Shown here in pieces: positions 25,529 through 28,500 of a stretch of 64,000 nt of DNA. The DNA lies in the NCBI GenBank assembly GCA_042562495.1, contig JBHPMC010000004.1, forward strand, positions 405 to 64,404, given 5' to 3'. Below the pieces are notes generated by a model. The model did no database searches, had not been told where the DNA came from, and was given only the letters and a program-made list of their open reading frames with translations. A program made the position numbers and the translations under genes. Every line of letters starts with the position of its first letter. The first letter of the stretch is position 1. This DNA comes from Candidatus Margulisiibacteriota bacterium (GTDB lineage: Bacteria; Margulisbacteria; Termititenacia; CAZZFK01).

Positions 25529-28500
25529 ATGAATACATCAAGAATTTCGGGGGGATATGATCCTAGCAAGGATATCAAGGCTTTAAAACGACAGGATGGG
25601 CTTAAAACCCAAGCTCAACGTGATGCTATCGCTAATCTTGAGAATAATTTCTATCAAACTAAAGATAAAGCTGACCAGAAAAAGATCATCAAAGTTTTAG
25701 CACGAGAAATAGATGGAGCTTTTATGCGTGGCCGAGAAGATTCGGCAACTGTCCGTGAGCGTTCCTTGGAAGCTTTATTGAAAATAATCGGCAAGCTCAA
25801 TGAACAAGTGCCGCCCGATGTTGAGCTATTGCAATTTATTGCAGTGGAGTTGAAAGGGGTTGGAAATAATAAGCTCTCTTCCGGAGAAAAAACACTTTGC
25901 CGAAAACTATATTCAGCCTTTCTTTATTCTGCCAACCTTTTACGTAAGGAGCTGCAATTCAAAAGCTCTTATGAGCTCTTGGAAAAGACCTTGGAGATCG
26001 ATCCCGACCATAAGATATATCAAGATAAAAAAAGCACTATCAAAGATAAAGAAGTCATCCTGGAAATACATGAAGAAATGTATTTCTGCGGCAATGCTTT
26101 GGAAGAAAAAGATTACTGTGTAGAAAGTGCCGATAAATTCATTGAATTCAGCGAAGATAAGAACAATGTTGATCTTTATAAATTAGAGGATCGCGACCTT
26201 AAGCAACAGGTAGAAAATATGAAGAATTTCAAAGCCGTTGCCGATGATCCGGATAGCGAAGCATCACAGGCAATAATGAGAAAACAATTCCAGCAAATGC
26301 TCTACGGCGGCAGTAATAAAAGCTATGAATCGACCATGGATCACTTAAGGATATCTCAGGAAAAAGACAGCTATATCATGGGTGGCGTAAAGGGCAGCCA
26401 TACTCAGGGCCAGGAATCTCAATTTAAAATATTCGGTGAATGGGGCACGGCCTACAATGAAGCAAAGACCGGCTATATCTCTAGAAATCTTGGTTATTCA
26501 ACTGATTTTGAAAATATGAATAAAAATATTATTGAAGGCGGCGTAAAGCTTACCCAGCATGCAGGCAGAACATCCTATCAGGAATATCTGCAGTTACGCT
26601 GGAGTAAATATGAAGGCTTAAGTGGTAATGTGGGAGCAAATGTTAATTACCTGGTCAAATCGGAGAATGTCCTGTTCAACAATGCACTTTTAGCTGCCGG
26701 GGCGGATTGGAAATTTATGTCCCAGATGATCACCCCTTATCAGGGACCGATAAGATTTGACACACCAAAAGTTCTGACACCCAGCGGTTCTTATCTAAAT
26801 AGCATCAATCCTTTACAAAACGGAATAGCGCCCCAAGCTCCAGCCTGGGCCAGGCCAAATCAAGTATTCAGACAAGGTGTCTGGCGTAATCTTACCTTAA
26901 GCGCCGGCGCTTCTAATGGCTGGTATCTGGGCTACATTAGTGAGAACAATTATTGCATTAGTACTCTCTCCGGCTCAGCATCAACTTATCAAGGAATAGA
27001 TGTTGGCGTAGAAACACGAGTTGCTGCAACGCCTTGCCCAGGCATAAGCTTTGATGTTGCCGCCAAAGCAAGTATTTATAGATTATATGCCGAAGCTGAG
27101 ATGGAGCTTGGTCCTGATCCTTTTTACGTAGGTTTTGGTATCGGCACAGATCTTGGCCCGTATGCCTTGATCGGCACCAGAAAATTCAAACCGGGATTTT
27201 TAGCAATGTTATTAGGACCTCTTGGCAATGAACTTGAAATTAAAGTTGGTGCCTGGGGCATGTCCTTAGGCGTTACTGCAAATAGACCTGGAGATAAAGG
27301 TGCCCGCCTGGTCATTTCCTGGATCCCGCCTTTTATAATCCCGGAATCCTACATTAATCCGGGCAGAATTAATCGTTATAATGATGGTTCAGCCGGAACA
27401 TCCGGCACAGCTTTAAATGCACAGATCATCGATCCTGAAGGCAGAACGACTAGCTATGTTCAAAAAATTGGGAAAAACCGTCGTAATGAATACAAGATAA
27501 CCGACACACCCCCTCCAAAAAAGAAAAAGTTTTGGGGCCATGTGCTTGATTTCTTTAAAAAAATCCTGATCATCCCGAGTATTATTGAACGAATATCTAA
27601 AAAAGCTATCGATAGAAGCGGCACTCGCACAGTATCCCAAGTAGGCAATGAATACCATATCACCGATAAATTCGATGACGGCCATGAAGTGCGCTATGTC
27701 TTAAGAGCTAAAGATGAGCAAAATTACGAACAAGTAAAAGTTCTAATTAAGGAAAAAGGTGAAAAATCTTTCAAAGAAGTAAGCGATATGCGGCCACACA
27801 CATTTAATGAAGCCGAATGGGCTGTTGCTAAGTTGCAATTATCTTCTGTTCGCGATAATGAGCGTAAAAAAGAATTGATCAAAGCTGTTGCCTCCGACAA
27901 GCGCTCACCTCTTGAAAAGGCCAAGAATTATCAGGAATTGGTGCATATATACCAAAGAATGAATGACCACGAAAAAGCCATGCACTACATTAAAAAAGCC
28001 CATGAATTGGCTGCAGAACAGGTCAAGCAGGTAAAAAATGTTGATTCAGCCAAAGAGCTGGAAATAGTGAACCTGTATTCCGAGATCTGTTATGAGTACG
28101 GCTTGATGAAAATAAATGCCAAAGTCTCAAAAACCATGATCCAGGAAGGTTATTCTTTGGTCGTAGAAAGCGAAAATGTCCTGGAAAAACATATGGATCA
28201 TAATATTCCCGGCAAATACCAGGCCTTGCTCAAGATCGCTCATGCTAAATCTTTATTGAAAGAGAATTATCTGCATAATTTGACCGATGAAGATCAGCTG
28301 GCCCAGGAACAAGTAGCTCTCCAAGAACTTAAAGACGCTGTGAAAACATTAGAACAAGCAGAGAACACCCCTGAGGATCCAAGTGATAGGGAATTACTAT
28401 CAGATGCCTATCATCTTTTAGGACAACAAGGCGAGATGGAGGTCATGAGACGTGATCAACAAGGGATCCCTTCTAAGCCTTCAGATTTTAAGAACATAAC

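Follow-up and report, generated by a model that had tools for sequence, protein, structure and literature searches.

Inverse autotransporters (type Ve, such as intimin and invasin) have a barrel which is not placed at the end of the protein, with other domains on both sides (PMC4943183). The membrane-coat-like proteins of Planctomycetes-Verrucomicrobia-Chlamydiae (PVC) bacteria have an N-terminal beta-propeller followed by an alpha-solenoid (PMC2799638). We have compared these and other systems with an orphan protein of 1489 amino acids (aa), encoded in a stretch of 64,000 nucleotides (nt) from a Candidatus Margulisiibacteriota bacterium (assembly GCA_042562495.1, contig JBHPMC010000004.1, positions 405 to 64,404), which we call the window. 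Residues 285-607 of this protein, here called the module, had been described in an original prediction as a porin-like segment, either part of a pore former exported in a non-classical way or part of a soluble scaffold. We lean towards the second idea: the module would be the soluble all-beta hub of a Sec-independent, most likely cytoplasmic, lineage-restricted helical-repeat scaffold. It represents a new, very rare sequence family on a common architecture, helical repeats plus a beta domain.

Exporters of the BcsC, PgaA and AlgK/AlgE type also combine TPR repeats and a beta region rich in Gly and aromatic residues in one large envelope-associated protein, and lipopolysaccharide and envelope genes are encoded near the 1489 aa gene in the window. 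Nevertheless, these exporters have a signal peptide, N-terminal TPR repeats and a barrel at the extreme C-terminus with an aromatic end, and they match NCBIfam or Pfam models. The 1489 aa protein has no signal peptide, a central beta region and C-terminal TPR repeats, and matches no such model; in the window, the PgaA and BcsC models only touch a neighboring TPR protein of 798 aa, and weakly. As in inverse autotransporters, its beta region is flanked by other domains on both sides. On the other hand, the inverse autotransporters carry a Sec signal and Ig-like or lectin passengers, and their conserved 12-stranded barrel can be recognized by sequence; in our protein there is no signal peptide and no Pfam match to IAT_beta, Big or lectin domains, and its C-terminal TPR region would be an atypical passenger. 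Bacterial gasdermins and other beta pore formers made in the cytosol also lack a signal peptide, and a beta-rich segment like ours could insert after activation. Unlike our protein, gasdermins have about 250-300 aa and an adjacent protease gene: we find no PADLOC, Pfam or PDB match, and no protease gene in the expected position, either here or at the locus of the only homologue, P0002. Chaperone-usher fimbrial subunits share with the module a nearly identical composition score, amphipathic strands and tight turns, but they have about 170-350 aa, signal peptides and Ig-like folds recognizable by Pfam, and are unrelated to it in sequence. Since for each of these systems a defining feature was tested and is absent here, the module is not a member of the described outer membrane protein (OMP) families, the inverse autotransporters, the TPR-porins of the BcsC/PgaA type or the gasdermins.

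The gene and its segments are listed below. Segment boundaries come from the alignment with P0002 and from two AlphaFold (AF2) runs, whose local confidence is given as the predicted local distance difference test (pLDDT).

25516..25526, + strand: Shine-Dalgarno-like GAAGGGGGAAG, read from the sequence, 2 nt 5' of the ATG
25529..29998, + strand: gene for the 1489 aa orphan protein; open reading frame (ORF) with an exact self-match to NCBI ACFL5G_01790, Candidatus Margulisiibacteriota, on a 66.9 kb contig
25529..26380, + strand: N-terminal Lys/Glu-rich helical domain, aa 1-284, by composition and helical moment; 27.8% identity to P0002
26381..26728, + strand: first lobe (a) of the beta module, aa 285-400, with amphipathic strands; 29% identity to P0002
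26729..26884, + strand: variable Pro-rich loop or linker, aa 401-452; 15% identity, with 14 aa and 7 aa indels relative to P0002
26885..27349, + strand: second lobe (b) of the beta module, aa 453-607; 41.9% identity, the best-conserved part of the protein
27350..27517, + strand: continuation of the beta region past the end first reported, aa 608-663; 41.5% identity, motif NPGxIxxxxDGSxGT...QII...SY.Q
27518..27613, + strand: basic/hydrophobic helical linker, aa 664-695, KKKKFWGHVLDFFKKILIIPSIIERISKKAI; a helical hairpin in AF2, 12.5% identity
27614..27823, + strand: small four-stranded beta domain, aa 696-765; pLDDT 74-83, 40% identity to P0002
27824..29995, + strand: C-terminal TPR-like helical-repeat domain, aa 766-1489; Pfam TPR_14, 24-28% identity to P0002

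A strong Shine-Dalgarno sequence precedes the ATG, which supports 25529 as the true start, and an in-frame stop is found four codons upstream, which leaves no room for an earlier start with a signal peptide; the protein therefore has no N-terminal signal peptide. Its N-terminus is hydrophilic (mean hydropathy -0.99), no transmembrane helix is found anywhere in it, and it ends in ...EKKKAKD. The original prediction was accurate in these respects: in the ORF, nt 26378-27350 code for residues 284-607, all ten peptides it quoted are found (residues 299-599), and the signal peptide is indeed missing, as it is in the homologue.

This homologue was found in an exhaustive HMMER (phmmer) scan with aa 250-700 as query, covering 1.84 billion cluster representatives which stand for about 15 billion proteins. 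P0002, with 1622 aa, is the only relative detected besides the query (E 7e-50). It is colinear with the 1489 aa protein (29% identity over 1209 aa, E 6e-136), and it also lacks a signal peptide and transmembrane helices: The mean hydropathy of its N-terminus is -0.74, and in the two genes in-frame stops are found 4-5 codons upstream of the ATG. Sub-threshold matches are found to HEAT_2 in the N-terminal domain region and to TPR families in the C-terminal part. P0002 is encoded in a 159 kb contig of an unclassified metagenome-assembled genome (MAG) with about 50% GC, assembled from SRP220891, a bird-gut study (cited as a metagenome study by Cao et al. and listed beside their bird metagenome). 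The DEAD-box helicase of this MAG gives an ambiguous taxonomic placement, with near 70% identity to those of Omnitrophota, Patescibacteria and Margulisbacteria alike.

Other searches did not enlarge the family. A full-length word-index search retrieved the query alone, a profile search with the two-sequence alignment gave no further relatives, the GTDB genomes only contain the same contig, and there is no match in the JGI metagenomes, including a search with the pattern GASN..YL.Y..ENNYC. Profile, DNA-pattern and tblastn searches of a 5.8-billion-protein index, IMG/VR, INPHARED phages and PLSDB plasmids added no relatives. Pfam (including a scan of the module by itself at E<=10), NCBIfam, PADLOC, PHROG and PDB sequence profiles give nothing on aa 285-665. 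The gene is real and under selection, and its family is extremely rare, with two members. As the family has only two sequences, structure prediction is limited.

The abrupt switch from a helical to a Gly/aromatic, beta-rich sequence is real, both by composition and by hydrophobic moment. The module contains 12.4% Gly, 9.3% Lys+Glu and 11.8% Phe+Trp+Tyr; the corresponding values in the Lys/Glu-rich helical flanks are 3.0-4.2%, 21-23% and 7-8%. At 57% of its positions, the beta-type (period-2) hydrophobic moment is larger than the helical one; in the flanks, this is the case at 33-37%. Among the 48 ORFs of the window, the module ranks first in Gly content (the runner-up has 9.4%) and in the density of amphipathic beta segments, 1.86 per 100 aa. 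The GC content of third codon positions (GC3) reaches 0.39 in the module, compared with 0.38-0.39 for the two main flanks, N- and C-terminal, and 0.35 for the short linker. Since it is the same as in the flanks, the module is native to the gene and the switch is an amino acid effect; for the same reason, a recent insertion of module DNA is ruled out.

In order to compare the module with known barrels, we have used a composition log-odds score based on seven E. coli barrels (OmpF, OmpC, OmpA, LamB, FhuA, BamA, ElfC) versus 63 other E. coli proteins. The barrels, scored leave-one-out, range from 0.022 to 0.142; the mean of the non-OMPs is -0.081, with a standard deviation of 0.04. The best non-OMPs are soluble fimbrial subunits, which reach up to 0.040 (ElfA 0.040; ElfG -0.008). 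With a score of 0.018, the module lies at the bottom edge of the barrels and inside the range of the soluble fimbrial subunits. In the window itself, the LptD-like barrel used as an organism-matched control scores 0.033, and a soluble lipoprotein of 237 aa scores 0.036. When 320 aa windows of the 63 non-OMPs are considered, 0.7% of them are as OMP-like as the module. Its composition is unusual, yet common to soluble secreted beta proteins, and is not a specific transmembrane signature. The statement that it is the compositional signature of a transmembrane beta-barrel or beta-sheet pore former is not supported, as fimbrial subunits and the 237 aa lipoprotein score alike and the ranges of weak barrels and soluble secreted beta proteins overlap.

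The strands of the module are clearly amphipathic, with hydrophobic faces of mostly 3-5 residues, and in the conserved lobe their length is 6-9 residues. In several strands both faces have polar or charged residues, for example residues 464-472, which are AYYLYYDDE in the homologue. Most hairpins have turns of 0-5 residues on either side; just three or four loops are longer than 8 residues. The invariant motifs of lobe b, in comparison with P0002, are RN.xLSxGASN..YL.Y..ENNYC, ISFD, EMELGP and LGPY..IGT.

AF2 was run with two-sequence alignments on aa 250-766 and aa 445-665. Both runs give all-beta hairpins at matching positions, although the tertiary structure is unreliable. In the first lobe, DSSP strands are found at 317-377 with low confidence, and no secondary structure is predicted for the Pro-rich loop. 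The strands of lobe b coincide in both runs, the best pLDDT (50-65) being found at aa 531-604, and so do those of the continuation, at 629-634, 640-647 and 653-660. The domain at aa 696-765 is the only confidently modelled part of the protein. The extent first assigned to the module must be corrected: the beta region covers about 296-660, is split by the loop at 401-452, and is accompanied by the beta domain at 696-765. The beta region is bigger than first described, and bipartite. The linker at aa 664-695 has the highest hydropathy of the protein over 19 residues (1.29), but charged residues interrupt it, so it is not a transmembrane helix. This linker includes a lysine-rich amphipathic stretch, PPPKKKKFWGHVLDFFKKILIIPSIIERISKKAI, which might make contact with membranes; P0002 does not conserve this sequence.

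The helical and TPR-like nature of the flanks, also part of the original prediction, is borne out by composition, helical moment and the match to TPR_14 (E 9.4e-8, 32.5 bits versus a cutoff of 23.5). This match is found only in the C-terminal domain, which also has a TPR_8 stretch at 798-829. As membership is defined by a profile score above the curated threshold, only this domain qualifies as TPR; its top PDB sequence matches are designed CTPR proteins.

We infer that the module is soluble, for the following reasons. Both family members lack export signals and transmembrane helices. If the module were in a membrane, charged helical and TPR flanks of 284 and about 880 residues would need to cross one or two membranes. 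There are no OMP, pore-former or defense-effector profile matches and no PDB sequence match. The hairpin turns are short, the strands of the conserved lobe have 6-9 residues, several strands are polar or charged on both faces, and a variable, Pro-rich linker of about 50 aa splits the two lobes. Finally, soluble fimbrial subunits and a soluble lipoprotein of this genome have an equal composition score.

In such a protein, helical repeats (1-284) would be followed by a bipartite beta region (about 296-400 and 451-660), the linker, the beta domain (696-765) and a TPR-like solenoid (766-1489). The amphipathic strands would bury one face in the protein core, not in lipid, and the fold may be a sandwich or meander, possibly a six-bladed propeller. 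The beta hub might provide a rigid surface for ligand binding or self-association, and the helical and TPR arms might recruit partners: The 955 aa protein encoded just upstream is an obvious candidate. It is the architecture which suggests this mechanism. If correct, the protein would be another lineage-specific scaffold of a candidate phylum, mainly useful as a two-member domain family among some 15 billion proteins.

Several observations weigh against a soluble hub. The two AF2 runs do not give a confident structure: The mean pLDDT is 33.4 and the predicted TM-score (pTM) 0.26 for aa 250-766, and 40.8 and 0.41 for aa 445-665. As there is no confident model, the fold class is a guess. The internal repeats expected of a young propeller are not detected. 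The only pointer to a cytoplasmic location is the absence of signals. The module and its homologue, which scores 0.070, reach the low OMP range of the composition score. Five or six strands contain uninterrupted runs of 4-7 alternating hydrophobic residues, a length sufficient for crossing a membrane. Hydrophobic faces are not better conserved than polar faces, in contrast with a simple soluble core: Identity is 37-39% in the former and 41% in the latter, with no difference (Fisher p 0.6-0.9). Face conservation fits neither a buried core nor a lipid belt, and we have dropped it as a discriminator between the two.

The last of these observations bear on the idea, put first in the original prediction, that the module inserts into a membrane to form a pore, a beta-barrel or beta-sheet, and needs no Sec signal for this. 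It might be a barrel in the middle of the protein, like that of inverse autotransporters, or a pore former made in the cytosol like gasdermin or VDAC. The low charge, Gly/aromatic-rich composition, the density of amphipathic beta segments, the highest in the window, and the aromatic residues near strand ends would agree with it. Hydrophobic faces vary and some polar faces are invariant (EEKG, SGT, RAT), as expected for lipid- and lumen-facing residues, and VDAC, Tom40, TamA and PapC are among the top Foldseek matches, none of them significant. Nevertheless, the signal peptide is missing in both homologues, and none of the OMP, porin, IAT_beta, BcsC/PgaA-barrel, secretin, gasdermin or toxin profiles matches the module. 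No defense-effector profile matches it either: PADLOC gave two non-significant matches, both outside the module. The protein ends in KAKD instead of the C-terminal aromatic beta-signal; a degenerate version of this signal (polar-x-G-x-x-hydrophobic-x-hydrophobic) is present at 10 places in the sequence and hence uninformative. The long charged flanks must be accommodated, the turns are short on both sides, the variable linker is placed mid-module, and soluble beta proteins have the same composition score. Neither AF2 run closed a barrel with any confidence, and no type I or other secretion genes adjoin either locus. We consider a pore of this type very unlikely. Even a little less probable is its full version, a barrel or sheet pore in the middle of a giant helical-repeat protein, inserted from the cytosol or exported by another route, independent of Sec and kept in two distant uncultured lineages. 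If it were true, a giant protein of the cytosol would contain a Sec-independent barrel, in conflict with the rule that beta-barrels of bacteria depend on Sec and Bam.

Foldseek searches against PDB (twice) and BFVD found no match at E<=1e-3: All matches have E >= 0.01, with TM-scores of 0.1-0.26. In addition to the barrels mentioned above, their top lists contain numerous beta-propellers, as well as sliding clamps and phage tail proteins, none of them significant; this mixture reflects a generic beta meander. The AlphaFold and Foldseek checks proposed in the original prediction show all-beta hairpins and give no support to a barrel, with low confidence and no significant match. For the module, neither a soluble fold predicted with confidence nor a cytoplasmic homologue was obtained, as the family has only two sequences. 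The hedge in that prediction has a similar outcome: There is a real, conserved, signal-less all-beta segment, but the pore former finds no profile match, no confident barrel and a non-specific composition.

The approximately 24 predicted strands may be arranged in six groups of four, with 43-59 aa each: 296-344, 347-400, 451-493, 494-539, 543-599 and 602-660. This grouping would fit a six-bladed propeller as well as a sandwich. Together with the beta-propellers which dominate the Foldseek lists, although not significantly, it makes a propeller an option for the soluble hub. Internal repeats or a duplication of the lobes were looked for and rejected: The dot plot reaches a maximum of 27, less than the mean of 28 after shuffling, and hhalign between sub-blocks gives P>=0.037.

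These six possible blades also recall the PVC proteins, whose propellers have 6-8 blades with four strands each, and the 1489 aa protein might be a coat-like protein which shapes or tethers internal or envelope membranes. The PVC proteins are also large, have no detectable sequence family, and combine a beta-rich domain with a long domain of stacked helices (PMC2799638). Here the beta region is followed by a TPR-like solenoid of about 730 aa, the length of 1489 aa is near the 1039-1287 aa of the Gemmata proteins (PMC2799638), there is no signal peptide, and the basic amphipathic linker, KKKKFWGHVLDFFKKILII, could contact membranes. However, the N-terminal position of the propeller is a defining feature of coat-like proteins (PMC2799638), and in our protein an additional helical domain of 284 aa comes first. 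The propeller would be a grouping of predicted strands, among which no repeats are detected; at 12.5% identity, the homologue does not conserve the amphipathic linker; the phylum is Margulisiibacteriota, a lineage for which nothing points to internal membranes. A coat-like function is highly improbable in our view. A propeller-solenoid coat outside the PVC superphylum would be relevant to the question of how membrane coats originated. Our evidence favors neither the membrane-active nor the coat-like reading.

The region upstream of the 1489 aa gene has the following features.

22494..22523, + strand: strong bidirectional hairpin resembling an intrinsic terminator; stem of 12-14 bp with 6 GC pairs, T runs on both strands
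22636..25503, + strand: orphan protein of 955 aa, separated by a gap of 25 nt from the 1489 aa gene

The 955 aa and 1489 aa genes are probably co-transcribed. The 955 aa protein has neither a family match (Pfam, NCBIfam, PADLOC, PHROG) nor a signal peptide; a segment of about 85 aa is duplicated within it (412-496 and 554-638, 32% identity). The hairpin sets this pair of genes apart from a third family-less gene on the + strand, which codes for a protein of 535 aa (20869-22476) with a GTG start and a C-terminal low-complexity stretch, NPYNPYNPYNP. A small domain common to the three orphan neighbors was ruled out (hidden Markov model (HMM) E>=1).

These three genes (20869-29998) break a run of genes on the - strand (254-20524 and 30003-47595); the AT skew flips its sign locally and GC is slightly lower. 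This suggests that the trio is a small accessory island, in which no mobility genes are present. The surrounding - strand genes code for glycosyltransferases, RmlD, an MsbA-like ABC protein, Lnt, an LptD-like protein, LptF/G and DNA polymerase III subunits.

Such an island could encode an extracellular, surface or particle-associated structural protein, exported independently of Sec or assembled like a phage tail or contractile injection system, with the module as a soluble binding or fiber domain. The composition resembles that of secreted soluble beta proteins such as fimbrial subunits, and the trio interrupts a run of housekeeping and envelope genes. Divergence is very fast and distribution patchy: The 1489 aa family is found in two genomes with 40% and about 50% GC. 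Phage tail or baseplate proteins are among the top BFVD and PDB matches, without significance, and EF-hand-like DxNxDGxxD motifs are found at the start of the protein encoded upstream of P0002. Against this, IMG/VR, INPHARED phages and PLSDB plasmids contain no relatives, there are no PHROG matches, and the adjacent genes of the window do not code for integrase, capsid, tail or secretion proteins; the GC3 of the gene equals that of its surroundings, and long solenoids similar to TPR or HEAT are more typical of intracellular scaffolds. We regard an exported structural protein as unlikely, and a soluble hub in an intracellular scaffold as the better description.

Two other genes of the window should be mentioned. 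The 798 aa protein (30003-32399, - strand) consists almost completely of TPR repeats (TPR_2 E 1e-41) and has no evident signal peptide; its gene converges on the 1489 aa gene, with stop codons 4 nt apart. On the other side of the trio, a protein of 812 aa (18086-20524, - strand) has an N-terminus similar to a signal peptide, weak matches to LptA, LptD_N and LptC (E 1e-3 to 1e-5, below the cutoff) and the C-terminal residues GVTRY, and is probably an LptD which has diverged strongly.

No type I or other secretion genes, phage genes or protease genes flank either locus, in the window or in the P0002 contig. At the P0002 locus, a family-less protein of 1024 aa is encoded directly upstream on the same strand (L001 6768-9842, +). 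Homology between this protein and the 955 aa protein was considered and is not significant (BLAST E 0.017, HMM E 0.25). The 1024 aa protein starts with two EF-hand-like motifs, DLNKNGTLDDNE and DQDGNGVSKEEF, and only has a weak match to DUF7151. About 4 kb downstream of P0002 (L001 18894-24869, - strand) there are genes for a family-less protein of 1131 aa, a protein of 233 aa and a protein with an SLH domain; the 233 aa protein has a sub-threshold match to the C-terminal sorting domain of type IX secretion (Por_Secre_tail, E 1.6e-4). These genes suggest an unusual envelope in this unclassified bird-gut MAG.

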